Shown here in pieces: positions 23,507-41,549 of a stretch of DNA of 64,000 nucleotides. The stretch's first letter is position 1. The number at the start of each line of letters is the position of its first letter. The notes beneath the pieces are model-generated. The model did no database searches and was not told the DNA's origin. It saw only the letters and a program-made list of their open reading frames with translations. This stretch comes from Clostridia bacterium (GTDB taxonomy: Bacteria; Bacillota; Clostridia; JAAYHZ01), in NCBI GenBank assembly GCA_050950825.1, contig JBMNIH010000004.1, positions 576,001 through 640,000 on the forward strand, in the 5' to 3' direction. The position numbers and the translations under genes are program-made.

Positions 23507-23626
23507 TTAACGACTCCGGCATAAATGGATTTGATGAAATAAATACCGGACCCGTTGTTTTTCGTTTTTCTTCCTATATGATGAAATATATCAAGCTATG
23601 CCATAAAGTCATGATGGAGGTAATTA

Positions 23627-24437
23627 ATGAACGAATTTGTTACGGCAATTCAATTTCAGTCTGCTCAAACACCCGTCATCGTTCAAGTGGAAAAAAGGCG
23701 CTTTTGCCTCATCAAGTAGGCATAAAAACCATTGCTTCTTCTCTATGCAATCATTCCGAAATGAGAAGCTTTTTCGGAAATGATGAGCCGGGTTACGGGT
23801 ATCAATATCCTATGGAACCGGGAGAACCCGGGTACGAAGCCATTGGTATTATTGAAGTCATCGGAGCTGCTGTGAACACGCTGAAGCCCGGAGACGGCGA
23901 TTATGATAACAAAAGGTTATCCGTCATCGGATTAGGTGCAATCGGTCTGTGCACCGTCCGGCTATTACATATGTTTCCTACGTCGGATGTAACGGCGTTT
24001 GATTTATCATTGGATAAGCTAAAGCTTGCAAAAGATTTTGGTGTAGACCATACATTCCTGATAGAACCCGATAGAAATTACGATGAACTTGATAAATTTA
24101 TCGGACGGTTTGATGTGGTCATCGAGTGTTCCGGACACAAGAGCGGACAGGCGCTTGCATACACGCTTTGTGACAAAACCTAATATTCACCGGCTATTGC
24201 AAGGATCCGGTTCCGGTACGCCAATCCGTGTTGTTTAACATAAATACCACGATATACAATCCCGGTATTTTAACTATAGAGGATTTAAAAGCGGTTGCCG
24301 CTTTTTACAACAAAAAAACGATTGATCCCTCTCCTTTGATTACGAAAATTATCCGTCCGAACGCGGATGAATACATTCAAACCATTCAAGAGATCAAAAA
24401 AGGAGAAATCATTAAAGTGTTAATTGACCGGAGGTAG
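23627..24437 (+). pseudogene. Zn-dependent (MDR) dehydrogenase pseudogene
   Basis: ATG 23627 after GGAGGT; frameshifts near 23700 and 24180; LKPGD joined directly to GDYDNKRLSVIGLGAIG (internal deletion); DVVIECSG. Confidence 0.75.
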
Positions 24438-24439
24438 CT

Positions 24440-25314
24440 TTGAACATAGCGGTAGATACATATAGCTTCGTTATGAATTTTGGCCGGCACAGGTACAAGC
24501 CTTCTAATCCATGGACCTTGTCCTGCTATTTTGACTTTGTTATAGAAAACAGGCTTAACGGCATTCATATGGATCCCGCCCATTATGATCCGGTGAAGGA
24601 TGTGCCGGTACCGGATCGTTTTTGCAAGGAAAACAATCTGTATATCGAGTTAGGTGCCATGGAAATTCTGTCGGACGATTTTATGGATTATTTTAATGCC
24701 GCTTATTTAAAACATTTATCGGCGGTTCTCCGCCGGACAATCCTGCCGTGATGAAAGAAAGAATACTCAAATCAAAAGAAAAGCTCTCACATGTATTACC
24801 CTTGGCGGAAAAATATCGGATTAAATTGGCTCTTGAGAATCATATTGATATAACATCGGATGATTTGGACCGGTTAATTGATTTCGACAGTCCTTCTATA
24901 GGCATTTGCTACGACAGCGGCAACTTCTTGGCAATGGATGAAAATCCGTTGGATGCATTCTATCGATTCAAAGACCGCATCTTGTGCACTCATCTAAAGG
25001 ATGTTTGCCCGAAAGAACGGTATCCGGATGCACCGAGCTTCGGCCTTCCTGGAAAACAAGTGCAGTTCTGTGCATTGGGAGAAGGTATCTTGCCTATTCA
25101 AGAGATTCTGGCCGAATTATTGGCAGCGAAAGGAAAAGATGCATATATTACTTTGGAGATTCCCACACCTGTACAAAGCTCTCTTTCCCAAGCCTGCTTG
25201 CTACAAAAAGAAATAGACAATGTATTAAAAAGTATGGAGTATATAAGAAGAATAAAGCCGAGTTTAATGGATAGAAAGAAAGGCGAAAATTCTTGTCCGG
25301 AAAATTCCGTCTAG
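24440..25314 (+). pseudogene. Sugar phosphate isomerase/epimerase (xylose isomerase-like TIM barrel), split
   Basis: Two overlapping ORFs make one barrel; ALENH, ICYDSGN, THLKD, LGEG and TLE motifs. Confidence 0.7.
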
Positions 25315-25675: not shown

Positions 25676-26776
25676 ATGGCAAGGTTGAACATGGTATTGG
25701 CGGATACAAACGCCGAATATTGTGATTTCGTATTCGAGTATTTTAATTATCGGTACAAAGAACGATTTCGAATCGATTGCTTCACCGATACGGATGCATT
25801 TATAAAATACATTCGGTCCGAAGGACAAACGGTGGATCTTCTCCTTATCTCCATTGATTTTTTAAGTAAAATGACGTCCGAAGACATCGAGCAAAATGTT
25901 AAAGTCATTGTGGAATTGAAAGAAAACGCCGAAACCGGGAAAACGAAATATCGATCCGTAAACAAATACAGCCGAATCGACGATATGGCCCAAAGGCTAT
26001 TGGACATCTATGCCGATGAATATCGTTTGAAGGATGAAAACACACTTCCGGAGTTTGCCGGCAAAAAGACCTTGGTGATTCCGGTATGTTCACCGGAGGG
26101 AGGATGCGGAAAAACCGTTATCGCCGTAGCGTTAGCCCTCATGTACTCGAGCCTAGGGAAAAAGCCTTTTTACTTAAACTTGGAGAAGTATTATTCTCCC
26201 GTGAAAATTTTCAACCCTTCAACCTTACGAGGCATATCGGATATTCTCTTTTACATTCGAAACCAAGACTCGAATATCCGCACAAAAATCACCTCCTTTA
26301 AATGTACGGATCCGGATTACGGCGTGGATTATTTGTCTCCCGTCGCAACACCGAGAGATTTGGAGGAGACGAATATCCGGGAGGTGATCACATTGGTACA
26401 AGAAATCATCTCCGCCGAGCTGTACGACGTGATCCTTATCGATACCGACGGATCTTTTGATCTTTTAAAGCCGGAATTCATCAAGATATGTACAAAAATC
26501 GTCGTTCCTTATACCCAATCGGAATACGGAATCAATAAAATAAAATCCTTCATAAACAATCTGGAAAGATCCTTTCAAAACGAAGAAGAATGGCTCCGCG
26601 ATAAATTGATTTTAACGGCAAACAAGACGGAAGGGGCGGCCGAAAGAATCTTGGAGTCTTACATGAAAGCACCAATTCCTTTTCCGCTCTTTAATTCGAT
26701 GAACGGGTGCATACAATCCGTATTGAAGCATGATGCATTAAAGGAACTGTATAACGTTTTAAATTTCCGTATATAG
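25676..26776 (+). CDS. TadZ/CpaE-like protein (atypical receiver plus ParA/MinD-like ATPase)
   Basis: Receiver-like N-terminus, VNKYS linker, SPEGGCGKT, YLNLE, DVILIDT; first gene of the tad operon. Confidence 0.8.
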   Translation: MARLNMVLADTNAEYCDFVFEYFNYRYKERFRIDCFTDTDAFIKYIRSEGQTVDLLLISIDFLSKMTSEDIEQNVKVIVELKENAETGKTKYRSVNKYSRIDDMAQRLLDIYADEYRLKDENTLPEFAGKKTLVIPVCSPEGGCGKTVIAVALALMYSSLGKKPFYLNLEKYYSPVKIFNPSTLRGISDILFYIRNQDSNIRTKITSFKCTDPDYGVDYLSPVATPRDLEETNIREVITLVQEIISAELYDVILIDTDGSFDLLKPEFIKICTKIVVPYTQSEYGINKIKSFINNLERSFQNEEEWLRDKLILTANKTEGAAERILESYMKAPIPFPLFNSMNGCIQSVLKHDALKELYNVLNFRI

Positions 26777-26805: not shown

Positions 26806-28014
26806 GTGATTACGACGGAATTGGTTAACGAGCTTTGCAATCGGGTAGGGGAAAATACGGACCTTTACACATCCATATCCGACGATGCCATACGAAGTAA
26901 AATTACCGAAGCGGTGATGGAAAAATCTCGACACATCCTTTTGTCGGCAAATGAAAAAATCGAATTGATTAATCTTGTTTTTAACAGAATGCGGGGTATG
27001 GATATCCTGCAGCCGCTTCTTGACAACGAGGAGATAACGGAAATTATGGTGAACGGACCCGACCGTATCTTTATCGAAAAGAAGGGCGGCATCGTTCCTG
27101 TTTCCGTCAAATGCGATGCCAAACAGCTGGAAGACATTATTCAAAAAATCGTTTCGTCGGTTAACCGAACGGTAAACGAAGCAAACCCCATATGCGATGC
27201 TCGATTAAAAGACGGGAGCCGTGTTCATGTGGTCATGAAGCCTTTGGCATTGAACGGTCCCATTTTGACCATAAGAAAATTCTCCAAAGCACCGATGGAC
27301 ATAAATACCCTCATATCCTACGGCACGATAACCGAAGAAGCCGCCGATACTCTTAAAAAATTGGTAGAAGCGAAATACAACATTTTCATATGCGGCGGGA
27401 CCGGATCCGGAAAAACCACATTTTTAAACGTTTTGTCCAATTTTATACCCAAAGACGAAAGAATCATTACCATTGAAGACACGGCAGAGCTGCAAATTAC
27501 CGGAGTCGCCAACCTGGTGCGATTGGAAACAAGAAACGCCAATCCCGACGGGGAAGGAGAGATTCGTATCCGAGATTTAATCCGAGCCGGCTTAAGAATG
27601 AGGCCGGACCGCATCGTGGTAGGCGAAGTGAGAGGTGAAGAAGCATTGGACATGCTCCAAGCGATGAATACGGGGCATGAGGGGTCGCTGTCGACGGGAC
27701 ACGGCAATTCCTGCAAGGATATGATCAGTCGATTGGAAACCATGGTGCTTACGGCAGCCCGGATGCCCGTTGAATCCATAAGGAAGCAGATTGCTTCCGC
27801 TTTGGATATTATGATTTTTCTGTCCAGAATGAAGGACAAGTCTCGTAAGGTGATGGAAGTATCCGAGGTGGCGGGCTATAAAGACGGGGAAGTCCTCTTA
27901 AATCCGTTATACAAATACGAGGTTTTAAAAGACGGTACCGGAAAGCTGGTCAGAACCGAAAACGATATGGTCAACAAAGACAAATTCATGATATACGGTT
28001 CGGGAATGATTTAG
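26806..28014 (+). CDS. tadA: Tad pilus assembly ATPase CpaF/TadA
   Basis: EIMVNG, DARLKDGSR, GGTGSGKTT, IEDTAEL, RMRPDRIVVGEVRG, AMNTGH. Confidence 0.95.
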   Translation: MITTELVNELCNRVGENTDLYTSISDDAIRSKITEAVMEKSRHILLSANEKIELINLVFNRMRGMDILQPLLDNEEITEIMVNGPDRIFIEKKGGIVPVSVKCDAKQLEDIIQKIVSSVNRTVNEANPICDARLKDGSRVHVVMKPLALNGPILTIRKFSKAPMDINTLISYGTITEEAADTLKKLVEAKYNIFICGGTGSGKTTFLNVLSNFIPKDERIITIEDTAELQITGVANLVRLETRNANPDGEGEIRIRDLIRAGLRMRPDRIVVGEVRGEEALDMLQAMNTGHEGSLSTGHGNSCKDMISRLETMVLTAARMPVESIRKQIASALDIMIFLSRMKDKSRKVMEVSEVAGYKDGEVLLNPLYKYEVLKDGTGKLVRTENDMVNKDKFMIYGSGMI

Positions 28015-28040: not shown

Positions 28041-28808
28041 ATGGAAAAAAGAACTTTGGCAAAAAAGAAAATATATGATTCTTACGTTTTTTCAACCAAG
28101 GAGAAGCTGATGTACGGTGCGGCAGGGATGATCTTTACGTTTGCTATCGGATATATCTTTTACCGCCGTATCGGTTTTTCCGTTCTTTTGTCTTTCTTAG
28201 GGCTGTATTACTTGAAAATGAAGAAAAAGCAGTCGGTAAAAAAGCAAAAACAAGAGCTGAACGTCCAATTCAAGGATCTTCTGTACTTTTTATCAACCTC
28301 TTTATCGGCCGGAAGGTCGTTGGAAAATGCTTTCGAATCTTCCCTCGAATCGCTTCAAAGACTATACGGGCATGAAGAAAGCCATATCGTAGCGGAGGTT
28401 ATGATTATTCTGGGGAGGCTGAATATGGGGGATACCGTGGAGGAGTGCTTAATCGATTTTTCCAAAAGAGCGCGGATAGAAGATATTTCGAATTTCACGG
28501 ATGTTCTGGTTACCTGCAAACGAAAAGGAGGAAACGTAAATGAAGTTATCAGGAATGCATCGCGAGTCATAAAGGACCGGATTGAGATTATGCAGGAAAT
28601 CGAAATCATGTTGGCGGGAAAAAGAATGGAGCAAAGGATACTGGGTATATCTCCCGTAGCCCTAATCCTCTTGTTGTCATGGTTGGCCGAGGACTTTATG
28701 GCACCGGTTTTCAACAGCCTTTTAGGGCATACGGTAATGACCGTTGCTTTGGTTTTAATCGCTCTTGGCTATTTATGGTCGAAGAAAATCATGGATATAT
28801 CGGTATGA
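28041..28808 (+). CDS. tadB: Tad membrane platform protein TadB (T2SSF family)
   Basis: QFKDLL..LSTSLSAGRSLENA, GGN; TM helices; follows tadA. Confidence 0.88.
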   Translation: MEKRTLAKKKIYDSYVFSTKEKLMYGAAGMIFTFAIGYIFYRRIGFSVLLSFLGLYYLKMKKKQSVKKQKQELNVQFKDLLYFLSTSLSAGRSLENAFESSLESLQRLYGHEESHIVAEVMIILGRLNMGDTVEECLIDFSKRARIEDISNFTDVLVTCKRKGGNVNEVIRNASRVIKDRIEIMQEIEIMLAGKRMEQRILGISPVALILLLSWLAEDFMAPVFNSLLGHTVMTVALVLIALGYLWSKKIMDISV

Positions 28809-28822
28809 AAGGAGTAACAATC

Positions 28823-29707
28823 GTGACCTTTGTATCTTGGATTCTCTTGATTTTTGCCGTTCTGCTTACCGGTATCCTGCTGATTACGACGGGGCTATAC
28901 GGAAAAAAATACAAACCCTATATTCTCCCTCTTCGATCCGATGAATACTTAACGAAACCCTTGTTGCCCTATGGACTGTTTCTGCTGGATTTGATTTGGC
29001 GGGGACATCCCGGCGAATACGGCAAAAAGCTTCTGCGGAAAACCGGTTTTATATACGGCTTGGATTATGCTCCTTACTATTACCAAATCCATATGGCCGG
29101 CAAGCTTGTGTACATGACGGTGTTCGAAATCATTCTCTGCTTTTTTGGTATTGTTGCAAAGTCGGAACCGTTGTTTTTGGCTTTATTGATCCTATGCCCC
29201 GCCATTCTTTTCTTTTTGTGCGACCGAGTTTTAGACGAAATCGGCGAGAAAAGACTGCAGGAGATCCGTAAGGACTTTCCGGATTTCGTAGGGAAAATTA
29301 CGTTGTTGATGGGAGCGGGGCTCAATGTGCGTCAAACCTTTGAAAAGATCGGATCCGACAGCCTTAAAGACAGCCCTCTGTATGCGGAAATAAAAAGAAC
29401 GGTATCGGAATTGCAGTCGGGAAAATCCGAGATTGAGTGCTACCAAACGTTTGCGGAAAGAATTCGAATTCCGGAAGGGAATCGCTTAATCGGCATTATC
29501 ATACAAAACATTCGTATAGGAGGTGCCGCCATGCTTCGAGAGTTGGAATCGTTAAGCGGCGAGTGCTTGGCCGTAAGGAAAAACAACGCCTACCGATTGG
29601 CGGAGGAAGCGCAAGCCAAATTAATCTTTCCTATGATCCTCATGTTTATCGCCGTTTTGTTAACCGTTATGACACCGGCAATTCTCTCCATGAGGGGATT
29701 GATATAA
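28823..29707 (+). CDS. tadC: Tad membrane platform protein TadC (T2SSF family)
   Basis: DFPDFVGKITLLMGAG, AEEAQAKLIFPM; GTG start after GGAG. Confidence 0.88.
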   Translation: MTFVSWILLIFAVLLTGILLITTGLYGKKYKPYILPLRSDEYLTKPLLPYGLFLLDLIWRGHPGEYGKKLLRKTGFIYGLDYAPYYYQIHMAGKLVYMTVFEIILCFFGIVAKSEPLFLALLILCPAILFFLCDRVLDEIGEKRLQEIRKDFPDFVGKITLLMGAGLNVRQTFEKIGSDSLKDSPLYAEIKRTVSELQSGKSEIECYQTFAERIRIPEGNRLIGIIIQNIRIGGAAMLRELESLSGECLAVRKNNAYRLAEEAQAKLIFPMILMFIAVLLTVMTPAILSMRGLI

Positions 29708-29735: not shown

Positions 29736-29993
29736 ATGTCGACAAAACGAAAGAAAAATGAAATGCAAAAAAGGTACTCGGGAAAAAAAGCTTATCAAAT
29801 CAAAAACGTATTTACGGATAAACGCGGCATTAATACGGTAGAAATTATCATTATTCTTGCGGTTTTTATCGGACTGATTCTTTTGTTTAAAGACTATATA
29901 ACCGAATTCATACAAAAAGTATTCAGTACCATAAACCGAGATACGGACAGCATTTTAGGAATCATTTTTCCTGTCGTCAAAGGCAGGATGTAA
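29736..29993 (+). CDS. flp: Flp1-like type IVb/c major pilin
   Basis: Basic leader, cleavage site DKRG|INTVEIIIILAVFIGLILLFK with E+5; GGAGG SD. Confidence 0.88.
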   Translation: MSTKRKKNEMQKRYSGKKAYQIKNVFTDKRGINTVEIIIILAVFIGLILLFKDYITEFIQKVFSTINRDTDSILGIIFPVVKGRM

Positions 29994-30010: not shown

Positions 30011-30697
30011 ATGGCTATGGGTAAATTAGCATGCTTTCGAAAAAACCGTAAAAGTTTCGATACCGTGAGGAAAGTACTGAAAGAAAAAGAAGGTGTTGCA
30101 ATCATAGAAGCCGCCTATTTATATCCCGTCGTTATTCTTATCATAGCGGCCTTGTTGATAGCAGGCACGGTTTGGTATCAAAAAGCCTATTTTAAATCCT
30201 TGGTGAATCGTTCCGTTCAATCCATCTCCTTTTCGGTGACAAAACCGCCGAACGTCACGGCAAACTTAAACGAAAACGGTGCGAGCTTTCTTGATCTTCC
30301 CGTTTATTATTCCGTCGAAACGCTGAATGAACGAATCGAAAGAGAGGTTCGCAAAAACATGGAAAAAGGATTGGAACGCTATGTGATTTACTCTTTTAAC
30401 GAGCCGATAACGATCCGTACCCAAATCGTTAACCGTGTGTTTTACAAAGATCTTTTGGTGGAAGTGACCATACCCTGCAAGGTCCCTTTCGGGTTCTTGT
30501 TCGGAACGACCGACAGCGAAGGCAACCTTTTGTTTCATGAAAAGATATCCGTTTTACTACCGGCAACCGCGGAATTAGTTTGGCAAATCGATTTGGTTGA
30601 AGATTCATTGAAGCGATTGGGTTTGGATGATAAAAAAGATCAATTTATAGCAAGCTTAACGCGGCCTTTAAAAATGCTGTTGGAGAAAATGTATTGA
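30011..30697 (+). CDS. TadE-like minor pilin
   Basis: EKEG|VAIIEAAYLYP prepilin motif followed by a hydrophobic helix. Confidence 0.8.
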   Translation: MAMGKLACFRKNRKSFDTVRKVLKEKEGVAIIEAAYLYPVVILIIAALLIAGTVWYQKAYFKSLVNRSVQSISFSVTKPPNVTANLNENGASFLDLPVYYSVETLNERIEREVRKNMEKGLERYVIYSFNEPITIRTQIVNRVFYKDLLVEVTIPCKVPFGFLFGTTDSEGNLLFHEKISVLLPATAELVWQIDLVEDSLKRLGLDDKKDQFIASLTRPLKMLLEKMY

Positions 30698-30716: not shown

Positions 30717-33701
30717 ATGTTTCAAAACGGTAAAAATCAAAACCGATGGAATCGGTCCGGGTCTATTACCGTATTTTTAGCCGCCGTTTTGGCAACGGTT
30801 ATCACTTTCACCGGCTGCATGATAGATCTTGCACGCATTAAGCTGGCAGAGGCTTATGTAAGCCGTGCAGCCCATGCGGCCGCTTACTCGGTTTTATCCG
30901 GGTTTCATAAGGATCTGGAAAGAGACTATGGCTTGATGGCGATATATGATAGCGATTCATTGATAAGTGAGGAAACGGTTTTACGTATTGTCGAGAACAA
31001 CTTAAACATACATACGGAAAAAGGCTTGGATCTTTACAATTTTAAAACGGAGAGTGTAAAGGTTATGCCAAAGGTTCATTTTTTGTATCCCGACACCGTA
31101 AAAAGCCAAGTCGTTACTTTCATGAAATACAGAGCGCCCATTGAAGTCGTCGACTCCATACTTGAACAGTTGGACCTGTTATCGCGACTTGATGTTACCG
31201 TGAAAGGCATGAACATCAAGATCAAATTCGAGAAGAAGATCAATAAATTGGAGAATCGCTTGATAAAGCTGGATCTTATAACGAAAAAGCTGTCTAAGTT
31301 CAATATGGATAGGATTAGCGGGTTCTCGTGGTACGAAGCCTACCGAATGCTGTTCGGTTATCGCGTGACCATGGAGTTAATCGATTATGTTCAAAACCAA
31401 TTAAGCCGAATTACAATACAAAAGAATGACGATCTTTATACGCTTCGATTGAAAATCGAAAGCTTCAATCGGTGGGTTGGGATTCTTAACGGTTCGGGAA
31501 TAGGACCGCTATCCTTCGTCCCTATACCGGATATTTCTATGGAGCCGGAGTCCGAAGCAAGGGATATGTTCATAAAGGAGCTGCAGGAGGGAATACAAGA
31601 AGCGAAAAGGCAAGTAGCCTTAGTTTATATTGACATGGACCGAGCTTTCCGTGCAGGACTTTCGGAAATGACGGACAAGCTTTTATGCTACATTTATGAC
31701 TGCCAAGATGCCGTAGCTTTGTGTAACGGGATTATAGCGGATTCTCAAGAAGCGGTGAAGCTGGCGAGAGAAGGGTTGGAGCTTCTTTCTCATGACAAAA
31801 CGCCGGTAGGGCAAGAAATGAAGTTGGAGTTTGAAAAGGCTCTTCGGTCTCTTCGAAAGGAGAATACGGAAAGACTAAAAGAGAATATATTGCATAACAA
31901 GGATTTGCTGTCCGGGCTGTTATCGGCGGTAAATAATATGGAGGAAGATGCAAAGGAAGTATTCCATCGGTCGGGCATATTGGATGTAGGCTTGGCATTA
32001 AGGAAAGCGGATGATAAGCTTCACCGTTTTTACGAGCGGATCCAAGCATACAAGGACAAGGATATAACATTCGATTACGATCAAGATGCAAAACCGTATC
32101 CGACGGATGAAACAAAAGGCGGAAGCGGTTCCGATCCGAGAGAAAAAATAACAAGGGATGCCCTGCGGATAAAAGAAAACGAAAATACGTTCGAGCCGGT
32201 TATAATGGGTGAAATGCCGGGAGAATCAAAGGATTTTCTCGACGGATTGCCGTCTCGTTTGATGAAAACCATGACAAACGATATTTATGATTTTTCGATA
32301 CATGACCCGGAATTCGGCGAAGGTGATGGGGAAGGGACCTCGGAGAAAGCGCTGAATAAGGCAACCGGGTTTTTCAGCGGATTGAAAGAAGTAATGAAAA
32401 ACGATTGGAACGAATTGATCGAGGAAATCTACTTTAACGAATATATTATGCAAACCATGAAAAACGCCGTTACGGGGAGCAATGAAGAAAAGATCAACGT
32501 TTACGGCTCCGGCAAGGAGGAGATGGCTGCGAAAGAGTATTTTGATATTCGAGGAAATCTAATAAGAGAGCGAAGCTCCTATTTTAAAAAAGGTGAAGCG
32601 GAATACATCATAGTCGGAAACCGATCCGAAGCGGTGAATATCTCCGTTGTGAAAAGCGAAATATTGGCCATCCGGTTTGCCATGAATCTGTTGGGAGCCT
32701 ATATGGACAAGAGCAAAACCGCTTTGGCAAGTACAATCGCCCTTTCAACGGTAGGCTGGACCGGTATCGGCGTACCTTTGATGAAGACGCTCATTATGTG
32801 TGCATGGGCTTTTGCAGAGTCGGTGACCGATGTCATAAAGCTTACGGAAGGGAAAACCGTTCCTTTTTACAAAACGGATTTTTACTTGGATATCGGATTG
32901 GCGGACATAGGGAAAACGGTGGAGAACGTCATCGAAAAAGCGGCAAAAAATTCATTGGAAAATATCGAGAAAAGTGCATTGGACAAAGGAAAAAATTTGA
33001 TTTACAAGATTGCGGAGAACACGGTGGATCGGTACCTTCTCGAAAAGGGATTTTATACGGTTTCCGAAAACCTATATGAGCAGTTGGAATGGCGAGATTC
33101 GGAATTTGATACAAGCTCTGACGGTGTTTTTCAAACCGTCCAAGGAATGATTCACGATTGGTTGAAAGAAACATACAACAAAAGGATTGAAAGCTTAACG
33201 GACCGTATTAACGAAACCGGCGATTATCTAAAAGAAACCATAATGATAAGCTTGGAATACCAATTGGACGAGCATAACCCCAACGGATTGTATCGAAAAA
33301 TTACGAATTATCTTGATTCCATAAATACAAGCTTGGCGGACATTGCCGGGTCTGCAGTAGGATCTTTATTTGCTTTCGATGTCTTTGTCGAATCCGATGG
33401 AACAAGCTCACTGCAAAGCGGTATGAAAATCCTTCCTTTATCCTATAACGACTACATACGAATTTTATTGCTTTTACAAGGAAAGGATAAGGTCCTGTAT
33501 CGAACCCTTGATTTGATTCAACTGAACATGCAGCAAAAAGACCGAGATTTTTATATCTCCCGACAAAATGCATACGTGAACGTAGAGGTTGAAGTATCGA
33601 TACCGTATTTATTTCCTACCGGGATGTTTATCAACGACAAGCTGAAGGATCAAGAGAAAAAAAGACACGTGATAAGGGCGGTGGTTGTGAAAGGATATTA
33701 A
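30717..33701 (+). CDS. Large TadG-like pilin with DUF5702-like C-terminus
   Basis: SG|SITVFLAAVL..IDLARI; VVTFMKYRAP; EAEYIIVG, ILAIRFAMN, AWAFAES and SYNDYIRILLL motifs. Confidence 0.75.
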   Translation: MFQNGKNQNRWNRSGSITVFLAAVLATVITFTGCMIDLARIKLAEAYVSRAAHAAAYSVLSGFHKDLERDYGLMAIYDSDSLISEETVLRIVENNLNIHTEKGLDLYNFKTESVKVMPKVHFLYPDTVKSQVVTFMKYRAPIEVVDSILEQLDLLSRLDVTVKGMNIKIKFEKKINKLENRLIKLDLITKKLSKFNMDRISGFSWYEAYRMLFGYRVTMELIDYVQNQLSRITIQKNDDLYTLRLKIESFNRWVGILNGSGIGPLSFVPIPDISMEPESEARDMFIKELQEGIQEAKRQVALVYIDMDRAFRAGLSEMTDKLLCYIYDCQDAVALCNGIIADSQEAVKLAREGLELLSHDKTPVGQEMKLEFEKALRSLRKENTERLKENILHNKDLLSGLLSAVNNMEEDAKEVFHRSGILDVGLALRKADDKLHRFYERIQAYKDKDITFDYDQDAKPYPTDETKGGSGSDPREKITRDALRIKENENTFEPVIMGEMPGESKDFLDGLPSRLMKTMTNDIYDFSIHDPEFGEGDGEGTSEKALNKATGFFSGLKEVMKNDWNELIEEIYFNEYIMQTMKNAVTGSNEEKINVYGSGKEEMAAKEYFDIRGNLIRERSSYFKKGEAEYIIVGNRSEAVNISVVKSEILAIRFAMNLLGAYMDKSKTALASTIALSTVGWTGIGVPLMKTLIMCAWAFAESVTDVIKLTEGKTVPFYKTDFYLDIGLADIGKTVENVIEKAAKNSLENIEKSALDKGKNLIYKIAENTVDRYLLEKGFYTVSENLYEQLEWRDSEFDTSSDGVFQTVQGMIHDWLKETYNKRIESLTDRINETGDYLKETIMISLEYQLDEHNPNGLYRKITNYLDSINTSLADIAGSAVGSLFAFDVFVESDGTSSLQSGMKILPLSYNDYIRILLLLQGKDKVLYRTLDLIQLNMQQKDRDFYISRQNAYVNVEVEVSIPYLFPTGMFINDKLKDQEKKRHVIRAVVVKGY

Positions 33702-33702
33702 G

Positions 33703-34899
33703 ATGGGAAAAAGGACGAAGAAAACGATTCAAAAAACGCTCCGGTCCGAAAAAGGCGGTTTAACGGTCGAAGCATCCGTTGCTTTGCCGTTGTTTGTACT
33801 GACCGTATATTTGCTTTTGTACCTCATTCAAATTGCCCTTATACACAACAGGATGCAGCAGGCATTAACCGAGGTGGCTTTTGAAACCGGTCATTACATA
33901 ACGGCTTACATGAAAACGGGAATAGACGAAGAAGTCGATACGGTTTTTAATCTCCTTTATCGCTTGCTTCAAAAAATCAATTCGGAGCAAGGGGATCCTG
34001 AAGCCTTTTTGCAATACGATAAACCGGTAACGTCTTTTTTTGCTTCCGTTATAAAGCAAAAAGCCCGGGACGGTCTGTCAAATGTCGTATTTCGAAATAT
34101 GATCAAAAAATATCTGTCCGACGGCAAAGGTGTAAGAAAAAACCCGGAATTTGTCGGGATTGCAGGAGGGATTGACGGGTTGGACTTTAGCGGATCCAAA
34201 ATACTTGAGGATCAAAGAACCTTGGAGTTGACGGTACGGTATGAAATTCAACCTGTTATCAATGCGGGAAATTGGATTCGGTTTCAAATGGAAAATACGG
34301 CGGCAATCATCCCGTGGCAGGAAGGAGGTAATGCCGATAGTATCAAAGAGGAAGCCTTCAGTGCATGGGTTGATCTTTCGCCCGTCGACAGAGGAATGTA
34401 TATCATCGACCGGGAGATTGCCGGCTTTTTGAACCGTAATAAAGACAAGGAGATTGTTATTTATAACGGGAAAGCCTTTAAAGCAGGAGTATTGTTTTCC
34501 CGGTCGGATGTATTTGAGGAAATCGTGAATATTAGAAGCATCGATTGTACGCTGCCTTCTTACCGTAACGAAACGGTTTTTATCGAGACCGTCATGGAAG
34601 AAATCCGGGATACCGGAACACCGAACCGATTCAAGGATTTTAATACGGGACGATTGTTGAAAATGGACAATAACACCAAAAGAACATTAATTGTTGTTCT
34701 TCCGGAGGGAGTCACGATTTCGGATACGATTCTTCATCCGTGCCGTGAATACGCTCGACTTTGGGATGTGAATTTGGTCTTTAAATATGCTTACGGAAAA
34801 CCGAAAAACGGCACCGGTATATTCTTTTTCGGTGATTCGAATGATAATGATTTTGAAAAACCGCTGCTAAACGGCAGCCCGGCAGAGAAAGCCCGATAG
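33703..34899 (+). CDS. TadE-like minor pilin with C-terminal nuclease-fold-like domain
   Basis: KGG|LTVEASVALP; IAGGIDGLDFSGS; C-terminal W..L.P..RG, IRSID.T..SY and RTLIVVLPE motifs. Confidence 0.75.
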   Translation: MGKRTKKTIQKTLRSEKGGLTVEASVALPLFVLTVYLLLYLIQIALIHNRMQQALTEVAFETGHYITAYMKTGIDEEVDTVFNLLYRLLQKINSEQGDPEAFLQYDKPVTSFFASVIKQKARDGLSNVVFRNMIKKYLSDGKGVRKNPEFVGIAGGIDGLDFSGSKILEDQRTLELTVRYEIQPVINAGNWIRFQMENTAAIIPWQEGGNADSIKEEAFSAWVDLSPVDRGMYIIDREIAGFLNRNKDKEIVIYNGKAFKAGVLFSRSDVFEEIVNIRSIDCTLPSYRNETVFIETVMEEIRDTGTPNRFKDFNTGRLLKMDNNTKRTLIVVLPEGVTISDTILHPCREYARLWDVNLVFKYAYGKPKNGTGIFFFGDSNDNDFEKPLLNGSPAEKAR

Positions 34900-34922: not shown

Positions 34923-35468
34923 TTGAAGAATTTAAACGGCTTATTGCCGAAAAAAACCTTTCGATATGTTATATGTTTTATAGGTTTTTTGATTTGGATC
35001 GGTTTTCTTCTTTATATGGAAAATCGGTCGGGGTATCGAATATTTCATTGGTTCGGCCTTGCTATCTTATGCTTTGCAGCCGTTCAAGATTCGGTTGAAG
35101 GAAAGGTTCGTCCGCTATTATGGGGCTTGCTTTTATTATTCGAATTCTCTGCTTTCCTTTTAAATCCGAAACGAACGGACTTTTCCGAGTCGGTTTCCGT
35201 TCTCGTGTTTGGAGTTTTGCTGGGGGTTGTATTCCTGATCTTTAAAAACCATATCGGGCTAGCCGATATCATGGTATTGATTTCCTTATCATTCGGATTC
35301 GGTGTTCCCGTTATCGTAACCGGTCTTGTAATATCATGCTTTTTCATATTTATCGTCGGTATTATTTTAAAGTTTATAAAAAAACGGGAACCGAAGGACG
35401 GGATCCCTCTGATTCCGATTCTTTGTTTATCGTTATTGGTGCTTTATATAGCAGGTTTAATTGATTGA
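34923..35468 (+). CDS. Prepilin peptidase A24 (TadV/CpaA)
   Basis: AVQD and IGLAD catalytic Asp motifs, IPLIP, multi-TM. Confidence 0.75.
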   Translation: MKNLNGLLPKKTFRYVICFIGFLIWIGFLLYMENRSGYRIFHWFGLAILCFAAVQDSVEGKVRPLLWGLLLLFEFSAFLLNPKRTDFSESVSVLVFGVLLGVVFLIFKNHIGLADIMVLISLSFGFGVPVIVTGLVISCFFIFIVGIILKFIKKREPKDGIPLIPILCLSLLVLYIAGLID

Positions 35469-35528: not shown

Positions 35529-37049
35529 ATGGAAAAGGACTTACTGGATTTATTCGATATTTCTTATACGAATTCGGTGACATCAAGTCATGTCGTATTC
35601 ACTGCTCGATCGGATCTTCCTTTTTATATCCACCAACTGAAGATGCTTGGTTATAACCAAAAATCTTTGAAAACCGTTATTCCGCCGGACTATAGAAAAA
35701 GAAACGATTCTACGGAGTTCTTTTACGATATTACTTCGAAAAAAACGTTAACGGATTTTTTGTATAAAAACATTTTGAACAAGGAGGAAGTGATTCATAT
35801 TCTGTCCGGTATCGTCGAGACCTTATGCGATTGCGAAAGCTACCTCTTGTCGGCGGATAAATTTGTTCTCGATACGGACTATATGTACATAGATCCCGAC
35901 GGAGATACCATCCGCATGATCTATTTACCCGTCAAACAATCGTTTGATGCAACGGAGCAATTGAAAAAATTTTTAATCGAGTTTATTTCGCTAAAAGCGA
36001 AAATATCAACGGAGCAAAACGATAACTATACACAGCGAATATTGGAATATATCAAGGAAGATCATGTGAGTATCCGCGGTATCAAAAGCTTGCTTGAACA
36101 ACTGGGGAACAATGCACCCTTAGAAAAGCAAGAAAGAGATCAAAAAGAATCGCATTTCGAAACGTATGCCGAATTTCCATACAATCCCGGTAAACACCCG
36201 GATCAAGCTTCGGAAAAGTCGAAAAAAAACTTGAAAAAAAGAACGTCCGAAAAACCTAAGAGTATGGATGTAAAGATTCCCGGTATCCGGAGTCTGCCTG
36301 AAGAATGTTACGAAAAAGTGAAAAGAACAAACGGAAAAGCCCGGCATGCTTACTTGCTACTGTTTTTGATCGGTATTCTTGCGTTTATTTTTATTGCAGG
36401 AACCGTCCTTATTGGACGAGGGGGAAAAGGTCAAAAAGGTCTTCAAATCTTTGGATTGTTCATCCTTTTATCCGGAATCGGTTATATCTTCTTCAATCGA
36501 TTCGGGCGTAAAAAAACCGGTGAGAATGAAGATAGCAAAGAACGGTTGGAGAAAACCGAAAAAGAAAAGGACAAGCCCAAGCTCAAAGAAAAGCAAATTA
36601 ACATACCGATCCCCGTATTTCAATCGGTAAAAGAGGAGAAGAAAGAAGCTCCCGTCGAAAAGAACGGTACCTTTATCCCGTCCGATAAACATATAAATAC
36701 GGAAAACGAGGAACTTATGCATACCGTTGTGCTGAGCGGCGGGAATAGGAAGGTGCTGTATTTACATAAATCCGGTTCCAACATGAAAATTTTCATCACC
36801 GCCACACCCTTTGTACTGGGCAGACTTCGTGAATTCTCCGATTTTGCCATTAATAACCCTGCCATCGGTAAATCTCATTGCGAAATTTCCTATGATGACA
36901 ACGGCGTTTACGTAAAGGATTTGGATTCTAAAAACGGGACTTACGTAAATGATATTAAATTGGAGCCCGGAAGGAGGGTTACGGTACAAGACGGTGACCG
37001 GCTGGGTATTGCTAACGAAAGCTTCGTAATTAAATATCCGGCAGACTAA
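35529..37049 (+). CDS. DUF6382-like / 2 TM / FHA domain protein
   Basis: QLKMLGYN, FYDITSK, YLL...LD..YMY.....MIYLP; two TMs; FHA motifs LGR, KSHC, DLDSKNGTYVN. Confidence 0.8.
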   Translation: MEKDLLDLFDISYTNSVTSSHVVFTARSDLPFYIHQLKMLGYNQKSLKTVIPPDYRKRNDSTEFFYDITSKKTLTDFLYKNILNKEEVIHILSGIVETLCDCESYLLSADKFVLDTDYMYIDPDGDTIRMIYLPVKQSFDATEQLKKFLIEFISLKAKISTEQNDNYTQRILEYIKEDHVSIRGIKSLLEQLGNNAPLEKQERDQKESHFETYAEFPYNPGKHPDQASEKSKKNLKKRTSEKPKSMDVKIPGIRSLPEECYEKVKRTNGKARHAYLLLFLIGILAFIFIAGTVLIGRGGKGQKGLQIFGLFILLSGIGYIFFNRFGRKKTGENEDSKERLEKTEKEKDKPKLKEKQINIPIPVFQSVKEEKKEAPVEKNGTFIPSDKHINTENEELMHTVVLSGGNRKVLYLHKSGSNMKIFITATPFVLGRLREFSDFAINNPAIGKSHCEISYDDNGVYVKDLDSKNGTYVNDIKLEPGRRVTVQDGDRLGIANESFVIKYPAD

Positions 37050-38865: not shown

Positions 38866-41448
38866 TTAAATATTTGCCTCGTCGAAAGCTTTATCGTGAA
38901 TGGATAAATGGCTCCCTTGAGAATAACGGACATCATAAACGGAATCGTTTTTATACCGTATAAATGCAGTTAAGGCATCGGTTTTTATGCCGTAATCGGA
39001 AAGAGCAATGCATCTTCTTTGATACGGATCGTTGTAGATGAGAAGGTCGGTATAGTATAAAGATTCTACGCGAATAACTACACATTCATCCGGGAGGCTG
39101 TCGACCGCAAGTCTTTCAATGTTTAATATTTTGCTCTTCCCGTCGTAAGGCTCCATCACTTGAACAAAAACGACAGGCTGAAAAGGTTCCTCCGTTTGCT
39201 TTTGTGTTATGAAACAGGGCATTAATAGCTCGTTTTTTAAAATCCGCTCGTAATTTCTGTTCCCGAAAAATCTCATGTCCGCGATCATGATTTCGGATCC
39301 GGTTGTCAGATCGGTGCATCTTAGATGCCAATCTCTTTTTTTCGCAACGTAGTTAAAATAGTCCTCAATATGAAAGTCGACATACCGGTTTTGTTTTGGA
39401 GACGGGTCTTTTCTTAAATTCTCAAAAAACAAACCCTTCGGATAATCGTTTACTGTCGGCACCGGATTCATCCCGCTGTACGAAAGGCTTCCGATGGCGG
39501 CGTGCATGTATCTTTCGTACAGGCGGCCGTTGCCCTGCAGACGGAATATGTCTGCAATATAAAACGCTTCTTCGGAAAGGTCCGTAAGGGATAAGGTTCG
39601 AGCGAATTGCTTTCCGTCCTTTATCATATTCGGATTGCTGCAAGTTACGGTTTTAAAGGATTCGCTGTTCAGCCATAAATCAACCTTGCCCGCTCCTCGA
39701 ATGCCCGGTGAACGATCCTGCGTTGCACAATTATGAACAAAAATCGATTTACCCCAATTGAATTCATCGGAATAAAAGCCGCCGTTATATACAACGGGAG
39801 GATACCCCCAATCCGGCATCATATCGATGCCCATACAGAACAAGCCGATATTCATGGGATCCTCGTGCTCATGGCCGCTTTGCTCCCAATCAAAGTCTAT
39901 CCATAAAGCCCGTTTATGCTCTCCTTTACCGGATCGTAAAATGGCCAGATGCCAATTCGGCTTGATCACGCTAGGAAGATCAATTTCATATCCCTCGTCT
40001 TTCAGAACCTTATCAATTTCCTCTATCATTTGATCAAATTCTTGTTTGCCTAAAAAATCGATCTGCGCTAACAGCTCGGTATATCGCTCTTTAACTGCCG
40101 ACCATATTCCTTTGATAAACACGGTGTCTCCTGTTATTTTGTAACATTTGTATAGCATATATAAGGAGCCCGGGCTTTTGTGCAGACAGCCGCCGGAGGG
40201 TTCGGCAAAAGCAAGGCAATCACCAATTTTAGGATAATACTCGTCGATGCACAAGGTATCAATGAAGAATCGATAGGCTTCGATTAGCGAAGGGTATTTT
40301 TTAAGCAAATCGTCGATAAAAGAAGGCTTTTTATGGACAAACTTCAAAAGGATTTCCGTCAGCTGCTCTTTTGCGTGGTTGGTATATCCGGTAAGACCGT
40401 TTTCCTTTGTAGCTCCGTCACGTTCCGTGCACTGAACAATGATTTCTTCCAACAGGGAATCCACCGTTTCATCATTACCTAACACGGCATGGATGATAGC
40501 GTATAAAGCATGGGTCATCGGAAAGTTGGATCTGCATTTTTTGTAATTTGCCAAAGCGTCCTTCAGTATACGATTTTCAATATGCTGCAGGATGTCTTGG
40601 GGTGAATTTACGGTATACGGTAAACCGTGTTTTTCTTTTTGCGCCTTTACAAATGCCAATAATTCCTGATCCTCGAGCATTGCACCTCGGATGATATCAT
40701 AAGCATGGGCGAAGACGGATATATCGTAGTAGGAATGAAACCAATACCCGAAATAGCCTTCGGTTGAGTAAAGCTGTTCATGTACATATACTTGGGTATG
40801 TGCATCGTAATTCGGCCAATAATCGGCATAACGGTCCAGCAATACGGCACATTTACGGGCATACTCCGGCTTTCCCGTAAGGAGGTATGCATAGCTTAAC
40901 GAGTAAATGCCACGAACCAAATCCTTGTGGTGGCCGTGTATAAGGTAGTAGCCGATAAATCGCTGTACGGTATCTCCGTTGCAATAACCGTTCCCGTCAT
41001 CAACGGCAAACATATGCAGAGGATCGTTAGGATCCGGATGCTCCGTGTTAAACAGCAGTGTTTTATCCGCCTTTTCATACCGGAAAACACCGGTTTCATC
41101 GATGCCGGATTTATAGAAAGAGTAGAAATCATTTTTCGGAAAGTAATTCTTACAGTCGGGGCATCGGACTTTCCAGGGGAAGGATATAGGATCAATTTCC
41201 CAATCGTATAATAGCCGTTTTTTCCTGCAAACGGGACACAAGCTGTTTGTGTGTACATAATGAGAACGTAGAATATACGGGTCGATTACCAAACTCCAAA
41301 GCTCCGCATCGTCTTTTGATATGAACCGTTGAGCCTCTTTTAATATGTTCCATCTTTTTTCCATGCCGTGCTTGCTTGTTTCGGCATATTCTCTGAGTTT
41401 TCGAACGGCGCCGTCAGGATAAAATACGCATTTGTTGTTTAAAGACAT
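38866..41448 (-). CDS. Heparinase II/III-like protein with N-terminal CxxC..CxxC, no signal peptide
   Basis: CPVC..PWKVRCPDC..FPKNDF; GHEHEDPMNIGL, PDWGY and HNCATQD motifs. Confidence 0.7.
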   Translation of the reverse strand: MSLNNKCVFYPDGAVRKLREYAETSKHGMEKRWNILKEAQRFISKDDAELWSLVIDPYILRSHYVHTNSLCPVCRKKRLLYDWEIDPISFPWKVRCPDCKNYFPKNDFYSFYKSGIDETGVFRYEKADKTLLFNTEHPDPNDPLHMFAVDDGNGYCNGDTVQRFIGYYLIHGHHKDLVRGIYSLSYAYLLTGKPEYARKCAVLLDRYADYWPNYDAHTQVYVHEQLYSTEGYFGYWFHSYYDISVFAHAYDIIRGAMLEDQELLAFVKAQKEKHGLPYTVNSPQDILQHIENRILKDALANYKKCRSNFPMTHALYAIIHAVLGNDETVDSLLEEIIVQCTERDGATKENGLTGYTNHAKEQLTEILLKFVHKKPSFIDDLLKKYPSLIEAYRFFIDTLCIDEYYPKIGDCLAFAEPSGGCLHKSPGSLYMLYKCYKITGDTVFIKGIWSAVKERYTELLAQIDFLGKQEFDQMIEEIDKVLKDEGYEIDLPSVIKPNWHLAILRSGKGEHKRALWIDFDWEQSGHEHEDPMNIGLFCMGIDMMPDWGYPPVVYNGGFYSDEFNWGKSIFVHNCATQDRSPGIRGAGKVDLWLNSESFKTVTCSNPNMIKDGKQFARTLSLTDLSEEAFYIADIFRLQGNGRLYERYMHAAIGSLSYSGMNPVPTVNDYPKGLFFENLRKDPSPKQNRYVDFHIEDYFNYVAKKRDWHLRCTDLTTGSEIMIADMRFFGNRNYERILKNELLMPCFITQKQTEEPFQPVVFVQVMEPYDGKSKILNIERLAVDSLPDECVVIRVESLYYTDLLIYNDPYQRRCIALSDYGIKTDALTAFIRYKNDSVYDVRYSQGSHLSIHDKAFDEANI

Positions 41449-41549
41449 CGGCTTCACCACCTCCCGCCCATTATAGCATAACCTTTATGCCGGAGTCAGT
41501 GAAAAATTTGTATACTCGAAAAAGAGTTACGAATACACGACGGCTTGTG

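Follow-up and report, generated by a model that had tools for sequence, protein, structure and literature searches.

A degenerate toxin-nuclease domain on a TadE-like pseudopilin of a Clostridia bacterium: a probable head module of the Tad pilus tip

The tad operon and the pilin part of the fusion protein

The DNA analyzed here is a stretch of 64,000 nt from a Clostridia bacterium (assembly GCA_050950825.1, contig JBMNIH010000004.1, positions 576,001 to 640,000; below, the window, in whose coordinates positions are given). According to the list of its open reading frames (ORFs) and the Pfam matches, it holds a complete tad/flp operon on the + strand, with the gene order tadZ-tadA-tadB-tadC-flp-tadE-like-tadG-like-fusion gene-A24 peptidase-DUF6382/FHA. 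The fusion gene (33703..34899, + strand) encodes a protein of 398 amino acids (aa), in which a TadE-like pseudopilin is joined to a domain with the fold of the EC869 CdiA-CT toxin nuclease. This domain occupies residues 218-365 (34354-34797), where the first-pass annotation, made from the DNA letters of the window, had placed it, and all sequence blocks quoted there are present in the protein.

The operon, all of it on the + strand, opens with the gene of a TadZ-like ATPase/receiver (25676..26776, 366 aa; Pfam AAA_31, E=6.7e-07, and TadZ-like_ARD, E=9.3e-05), followed by those of the TadA secretion ATPase (26806..28014, 402 aa; T2SSE, E=2.7e-58) and of two platform proteins, TadB-like (28041..28808, 255 aa; T2SSF, E=2.1e-09) and TadC-like (28679..29707, 342 aa as listed; T2SSF, E=1.1e-06). 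As listed, the TadC-like ORF runs 130 nt into the TadB-like gene, and its true start is probably further downstream, at an internal start codon near 28800. The Flp major pilin (29736..29993, 85 aa; Flp1_like, E=4.4e-16) has the motif ...KRG|INTVE. The next three genes form a minor-pilin cassette. The first encodes a small TadE-like pseudopilin (30011..30697, 228 aa; motif ...EG|VAIIE), whose TadE match is below the Pfam threshold (E=0.0054) and whose phmmer relatives hold the same position in related loci. The second encodes a giant TadG-like pseudopilin of 994 aa (30717..33701) with an N-terminal Tad motif (E=0.014) and DUF5702 (E=4.1e-41), and the third is the fusion gene.

The genes are tightly packed, as 1 nt separates the stop of the TadG-like gene from the start of the fusion gene, and 24 nt separate the latter from the gene of an A24 prepilin peptidase homologue (34923..35468, 181 aa). 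The Peptidase_A24 match of this homologue is sub-threshold (E=0.0012); in other loci its phmmer relatives match the family at 3e-17 to 6e-10, and proteins in the corresponding position do so at 3e-17 to 3e-08. The last gene encodes a DUF6382 and FHA protein (35529..37049, 506 aa; DUF6382, E=2.7e-23; FHA, E=6.1e-17), the conserved final gene of such tad loci. Among 20 related loci, from 20 genomes of the class, six match the window in gene order, including the DUF6382/FHA gene. Since the ATPase, platform proteins, Flp pilin and prepilin peptidase are all encoded in the operon, the fusion gene stands in the setting expected of a tad locus.

An exhaustive search of representative sequences with the fusion protein yielded 359 homologues at E<=1e-3 (a word-indexed search gave just three), and 93 full-length ones were used for the family profile and alignment. 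The N-terminus of the fusion protein has the form of a class III signal, ...SEKG18|G-L-T-V-E23-ASVALPLFVL, with a short charged leader (residues 1-18, 33703..33756), Gly in position -1, Glu in position +5 and a hydrophobic alpha1 helix. G18, E23 and A24 are near-invariant across the 93 aligned homologues. Given the conservation of G18 and E23, the likely cleavage site is G18|G19-L-T-V-E23, with Glu in position +5, that is, one residue earlier than the site G|LTVE proposed in the first-pass annotation. The same annotation had called this part a normal TadE pilin domain. Membership in the TadE family stands, as TadE (PF07811) is matched by 73 of the 93 homologues at E<=0.01; the score of the fusion protein itself (14.4 bits, E=0.042) is below the cut-off of 22.9 bits, and its assignment is therefore transitive.

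In the AlphaFold2 model of the fusion protein (mean predicted local distance difference test score, pLDDT, of 81) the pilin module (residues 19-205, 33757..34317) consists of the hydrophobic alpha1 helix, a helical insertion and two beta strands: a helix spans residues 17-72, further helices continue to residue 138, and the strands cover residues 174-182 and 194-202. A low-confidence linker (208-216) leads to the C-terminal domain, modelled at pLDDT of about 90 (221-362), and the protein ends with a poorly conserved tail (residues 366-398, 34798..34896; pLDDT 50-57). Judging from its sequence and gene setting, the product is a Tad (Flp) pseudopilin of the TadE/TadF kind. Weak structural similarity (Z 5.6-5.9) also links the pilin module of the model (residues 21-205, 33763-34317) with phage T4 gp25 and baseplate proteins related to it; this probably reflects a shared helix-plus-sheet arrangement, as such Z-scores are commonly seen.

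The C-terminal domain and the loss of its active site

The relationship of the C-terminal domain becomes visible at the level of the family. The corresponding Pfam family, PF21111, is matched neither by the fusion protein nor by its C-terminal 194 residues, even at E<=10, and has no match anywhere in the genome of the fusion protein; a single-sequence phmmer search against the PDB sequences produced spurious matches only (a designed repeat protein, E=6e-4), so that detection of the homology needs the family profile. The profile of the 93 homologues matches the EC869 CdiA-CT chain 4g6u_A with E=1.5e-15 and 4zqu_A with E=1.5e-14, and PF21111 is matched by 58 of the 93 at E<=0.01 (best 1.6e-14). 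The toxin blocks SVKSIDT, REIQLAIPAD and IEYGKSQGVKVTV, which the first-pass annotation had given, are found in the 4g6u profile alignment.

The predicted structure agrees with the profile. In a Foldseek search with the model 4zqu_A and 4g6u_A were the sole matches below E=1e-3. VIA-align superimposes residues 219-364 of the model on 4g6u_A with Z=13.4 (133 aligned residues, root-mean-square deviation 2.5 A) and gives Z=11.7 for 4zqu_A, followed by other PD-(D/E)xK nucleases at Z<=8.2. An ESM Atlas feature search, used only as a lead, scored 0.84 and 0.77, below the level regarded as reliable for this tool; its structure rows contained PF21111 clusters and a 246-member "pilus assembly protein" cluster, in agreement with the later tests. 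Taken at the level of family profile and predicted fold, these comparisons show that the C-terminal ~150 residues belong to the CdiA-CT EC869 / RHS-toxin nuclease fold, a PD-(D/E)xK fold of the restriction-endonuclease-like type, as the first-pass annotation had suggested. The part that carries the domain is a prepilin-type TadE-like module and not a toxin-delivery region such as CdiA, RHS or LXG.

The domain is better conserved than the rest of the protein. Its identity to the same-genus orthologue is 53%, compared with 48% for the pilin part and 27% for the C-terminal tail, and within the family the corresponding values are 39%, 35% and 9%. As the identity of the domain to orthologues exceeds that of the pilin part, the domain is under constraint. 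The fusion protein and its two closest relatives (P0003 and P0007) have an insertion with an extra strand (IVIYNGKAFK...) at residues ~244-262 (34432-34488), where the remaining family has a toxin-like "NLP..FP" motif.

The active site of the EC869-type toxin, a Zn-dependent DNase, is formed by Glu177, Asp198, Ser209 and Lys211, as described in PMC9086364. The published numbering corresponds to the chain index of the profile alignment plus 5, and the structural alignment agrees with the profile one (residue 219 of the model pairs with chain residue 162). All four catalytic columns are replaced in the fusion protein: E177 by I235 (34405-34407), D198 by V263 (34489-34491), S209 by N276 (34528-34530) and K211 by R278 (34534-34536). 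Hence the reading of the first-pass annotation was accurate both in placing "NIR" (N276-I277-R278) on S209-x-K211 and in finding no evident upstream catalytic Asp, and the Glu177 column is lost as well. The same is observed throughout the family. Among 94 pilin-linked domains there is not one with the complete tetrad, and 71 keep at most one of the four residues. The E177 column is occupied chiefly by Q, R, V or I; D is found in the D198 column in 26 domains and S in the S209 column in 15, and the K211 column has R in 29 and K in 21.

Other positions are nearly fixed in these 94 domains: W222 (93), R230 (89), G231 (87), Y287 (85) and P334 (93), with Ser in position 279 in 83 and Thr in 10, and Asp in position 281 in 62 and Asn in 30. 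The fusion protein keeps W222, R230, G231, S279, D281, S286, Y287 and P334. The live form of the domain, used as a control, was represented by three sequences and the two PDB chains. Two of these sequences come from a sample of 401 genomes of the phylum, where PF21111 is matched in two genomes, one of them bearing two RHS/YD-repeat toxins that end in the domain; the third is an RHS-associated protein (P0166) found in the homologue search. These Bacillota toxins are the closest non-pilin relatives found, with 70-84 bits against the hidden Markov model of the pilin-linked domain. All three retain E/D-D-S-K together with the same W, R-G, S-x-D, S-Y and P residues. Since the live toxins share the latter alongside the tetrad, the positions conserved in the pilin form are scaffold, and as the scaffold is the same in both forms, it is catalysis that has been specifically lost. 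The toxins further differ from the pilin form in their fusion to RHS repeats and in a possible immunity ORF beside one of them.

This possible immunity ORF is located in the locus with two toxin genes (L086, G663:C16:1-4663), both of which end in a live PF21111 domain with intact E-D-S-K. An ORF of 172 aa without a Pfam family lies 16 nt downstream of the first toxin gene and is a candidate immunity protein, and a Big_5/RHS-repeat protein is encoded between the two toxin genes, so that the locus resembles an array of polymorphic toxins that includes an orphan module.

The first-pass annotation had considered, as its alternative, a nuclease effector displayed on the pilus. In that case relocated catalytic residues would still cut nucleic acid, the targets being neighbouring cells or extracellular DNA (eDNA). 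The closeness of the RHS-linked toxins in scaffold and bit score, the conservation of R230 and D281, and acidic residues near the old active site could be taken to favour such an activity. However, the tetrad is found in none of the 94 domains and the fusion protein retains none of its four residues, while the near-invariant polar residues R230, S279, D/N281 and Y287 occur equally in tetrad-bearing toxins and thus represent scaffold and not a replacement site. Our data therefore contradict the effector, which we regard as highly improbable; as far as the alignments can tell, the domain is catalytically dead and very unlikely to be active.

The immunity-gene question points the same way. In the window the fusion gene is followed directly by that of the A24 peptidase homologue and not by an immunity gene, as stated in the first-pass annotation, and no conserved immunity-like gene follows the fusion gene among the 20 loci, which have no downstream gene common to all. 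An A24 peptidase is encoded downstream in seven of them (six by Pfam, one by phmmer), and secA, a trpR-like gene, a nucleoside phosphorylase gene, a gyrB-like gene and others in the rest, depending on the lineage. In one lineage single-pass membrane proteins of 77-108 aa without a Pfam match (L043:8824-9150, L044:9857-10090, L045:9059-9328, L046:10792-11040, L052:9214-9486) are encoded between the fusion gene and a trpR-like gene with secA. They were rejected as a general immunity partner, being confined to this lineage and in one case split from the fusion gene by an inserted gene.

Occurrence of the fusion and of its three-gene cassette

The first-pass annotation implied that the fusion was unique, and this was wrong. 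The domain is present in 98 of 151 homologue representatives. The family profile is matched in 119 of 399 scored genomes of the class at E<=1e-5, and the C-terminal domain is covered in at least 86 of the 399, as counted by hand among the matches listed. PF21111 itself is matched in 54 of 400 class genomes, once in each, and by hand comparison all 54 matches coincide with those of the pilin profile; no toxin-type copy of PF21111 was found in this 400-genome sample, and all live forms observed belonged to RHS toxins from other parts of the phylum. The order of the window's own bacterium is represented by three genomes only, and the gene occurs in all three. Relatives are annotated as "pilus assembly protein" or "hypothetical protein". 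By these sequence counts the dead-nuclease/pilin fusion is widespread and old in the class. As the same fusion is common across related anaerobes, it resembles a reused scaffold rather than a weapon.

The fusion gene has constant company. Its immediate upstream neighbour is a large ORF in all 20 loci, with DUF5702/TadG-like homology detectable in 17, and this ORF is usually preceded by a small TadE-like one. The position of the resulting cassette varies: six of the 20 cassettes adjoin tadZABC/flp, and the remaining 14 lie among housekeeping genes, the neighbours of the unlinked ones including pheST, secA, PBP2/mreC, a D-Ala-D-Ala carboxypeptidase gene and a radical-SAM gene. In all five tested genomes with unlinked cassettes a TadA homologue is encoded elsewhere (42-57% identity), and among 13 fusion proteins examined whose cassettes lie apart from a complete tad locus, 12 keep the G-x-x-x-x-E motif.

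One family of loci (L043-L046 and L052; e.g. L052:11881-12204, L044:7114-7425) deviates in the small first gene of its orphan cassette, whose product begins with M-(x)-S-T-L-E-(S/T)-A-I, that is, with a TadE-like N-terminus, almost no leader and no Gly in position -1. This product may be independent of the prepilin peptidase, to judge by its N-terminus.

Possible role at the pilus end, and flanking observations

The invariable adjacency to a large, usually recognizably TadG-like gene suggests that the domain serves a minor-pilin tip complex as its head, in a structural or a binding capacity. We consider it probable that, by exaptation, the catalytically dead toxin fold has become the exposed head of a pseudopilin at the Tad tip. 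The neighbouring A24 peptidase would cleave the fusion protein after G18, and the alpha1 helix of the latter would associate with the corresponding helices of the two pseudopilins encoded just before it, the small TadE-like one and the giant TadG-like (DUF5702) one. The three pseudopilins would then form a minor-pilin priming or "tip" complex, as has been proposed for the TadE/F/G and KilL/M/N trimers, in which the dead domain would act without catalysis as a folded head, either packing on the TadG-like subunit or presenting a binding surface at the pilus end.

Binding could involve a beta-hairpin. In EC869-type toxins, according to PMC9086364, such a hairpin protrudes and binds the immunity protein by beta-augmentation. 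The family alignment keeps the corresponding hairpin-containing stretch, which follows the core helix and precedes the "L..V.P" strand as in the EC869 and YPIII toxins and is modelled confidently (strands 318-320 and 326-333). It is plausible that the predicted hairpin docks onto a partner protein by beta-augmentation, a toxin-immunity interface having been turned into an adhesion or assembly interface. A complex prediction for residues 500-994 of the TadG-like protein and residues 205-375 of the fusion protein, both with alignments, scored 0.00, which gives no call either way.

Several points weigh against the head-module interpretation. Cleavage, assembly into a tip complex and the role of a binding head are all steps that we infer. 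The fusion protein is below the Pfam thresholds for both TadE and PF21111, so that both assignments are transitive, via homologues and the predicted structure. Moreover, the catalytic mapping relies on profile and MAFFT alignments, and PD-(D/E)xK enzymes can relocate their catalytic residues; D236, D269, E272 and E273 provide acidic side chains close to the former active site, and roughly half of the family members have a basic residue in the K211 column.

Alternatively, the fusion protein might be a pseudopilin of the assembly platform that stays in the membrane and primes or gates assembly at the base of the pilus, the dead fold being a spacer or facing the cell wall, with no external ligand. 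Conservation of the cassette as a unit with the TadG-like gene would fit this role, as would its location beside cell-envelope genes (PBP2/mreC, D-Ala-D-Ala carboxypeptidase, secA) in several lineages, and minor pilins are generally needed to start assembly (PMC12075869). Yet according to the same source priming complexes are thought to reach the tip as the filament grows, and the rapid divergence of the protein (~50% identity within the genus) fits an exposed surface protein, which makes a permanent place at the base quite unlikely.

The first-pass annotation had preferred a DNA-capture or eDNA-adhesion tip: the dead nuclease would keep its nucleic-acid groove and bind DNA uncut, and the Tad pilus would take up DNA or stick to eDNA. 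Other inactive PD-(D/E)xK domains bind DNA. Arg or Lys occupies the K211 column in 50 of the 94 domains, and the ancestral substrate of the fold is DNA, the TA271/EC869-type toxin being a Zn-dependent DNase (PMC9086364); natural transformation of Micrococcus luteus has been reported to depend on Flp pili (PMC4322843). On the other hand, the 94 domains are mostly acidic, with a median net charge of -2 and a median isoelectric point (pI) of 5.6 (59% are below pI 6 and 27% above pI 8), and that of the fusion protein has a net charge of -1 and a pI of 5.9, which is weak evidence against a conserved DNA-binding surface. Both metal-ligand positions of the groove are hydrophobic in the fusion protein (I235 and V263), groove positions vary freely across the family, unlike those of a conserved binding site, and no competence gene was found beside the cassette in the 20 loci examined. 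Hence DNA capture seems to us unlikely, while the broader claim of a domesticated toxin fold was fair, given the EC869-like domain with a degenerate active site, the lack of an immunity gene and the fusion to a Tad pseudopilin. The proteins of 800 and 343 aa encoded next to some orphan cassettes were considered as ComEC and HolA, which would favour DNA uptake, and this assignment was rejected, since by Pfam the genes are pheT and pheS.

The interpretation as a head module is close to an existing proposal. Herrou et al. 2025 (PMC12075869) propose that TadE/F/G-like minor pilins (KilL/M/N) form heterotrimeric "Tip" complexes, that "Tip" clusters can be unlinked from the core tad genes, and that Tad pili are generally customised by Tip complexes exposing variable domains. 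As in the TadE/F/G and the Myxococcus KilL/M/N Tips described there, three adjacent genes (starting at 30011, 30717 and 33703) encode pilin-like proteins, among them a short, an extended and a very large one, with class III signal motifs; the cassettes may sit away from the core tad genes, and variable modules customise the pilus end. Unlike the present case, the Tips of that paper come from diderm Proteobacteria and Myxococcota and have their modular domain on TadG/KilN; in the putative complex of these monoderm bacteria the TadE/F-like subunit bears a further module of recognizable origin, the dead toxin nuclease.

Compared with the Zn-dependent DNases CdiA-CT EC869 (o11, "TA271") and Yersinia YPIII (4G6U, 4ZQU, PF21111), the pilin form has the same fold, homology at the profile level and the W, G, S-x-D and P scaffold motifs. 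It differs from them in lacking the four catalytic residues and an immunity gene, in being carried by a Tad pseudopilin and not a CdiA filament, and in its host, a monoderm anaerobe. Grafting of a functional domain onto the C-terminus of a pilin for display on the filament is also a feature of the modular type IV pilins PilB and PilC of Streptococcus sanguinis and of the DNA-binding ComP of Neisseria; these belong to type IVa/Com systems and display vWA, lectin or dedicated DNA-binding surfaces. To our knowledge, none of them is a degenerate toxin nuclease and none is of the Tad class.

No description of a TadE/dead-nuclease fusion was found in the literature searched, and we likewise found no published Tip in which, as proposed here, the module of the extended subunit is a recognizable dead polymorphic-toxin nuclease and the host is monoderm. 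As Pfam matches most members of the family, the novelty lies in interpretation and not in detectability. On a large scale, the fusion offers a clear example of a nuclease domain of polymorphic toxins that appears to have been exapted as a non-catalytic part of a surface filament, all 54 PF21111 matches in the class sample being the pilin-linked dead form. For the Tad pili of monoderm anaerobes, of which little is understood, it also provides a recognizable tip cassette, composed of a TadE-like gene, a DUF5702 gene and the TadE-dead-nuclease fusion, and a defined, foldable module of 150 residues that is available for ligand testing. If, as we doubt, the dead head grips DNA, this widespread cassette would encode the receptor by which Tad pili of anaerobic Bacillota bind DNA, and thereby a route of DNA uptake or of anchoring to eDNA in biofilms in organisms for which no competence pilus receptor has been described. 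For annotation, the case is a warning that pipelines may label such pilus subunits "endonuclease toxin domain-containing".

Metatranscriptome contigs from three runs of three studies (bioreactor sludge, a biogas fermenter and an anaerobic digester) cover parts of the fusion gene without differences from the window (33653-33863, 33859-34027 and 34605-34864) and also touch the operon; being scattered pieces, they say nothing by their gaps and do not show levels. They are a weak hint that the fusion gene and the operon are transcribed, with DNA carry-over as another possible source.

Just 5' of the tad operon (23578-25314) there are an alcohol-dehydrogenase-like ORF of 201 aa, an ORF of 103 aa and an ORF of 188 aa, the last of which spans only the C-terminal part of a xylose-isomerase-like TIM-barrel profile (positions 105-246 of 249); possibly the genes have undergone truncation or a frameshift. 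On the other side of the operon, an ORF of 864 aa on the - strand (38866-41460), with no Pfam family at E<=0.001 (863 aa scanned), has several Cys-x-x-Cys pairs near its N-terminus.

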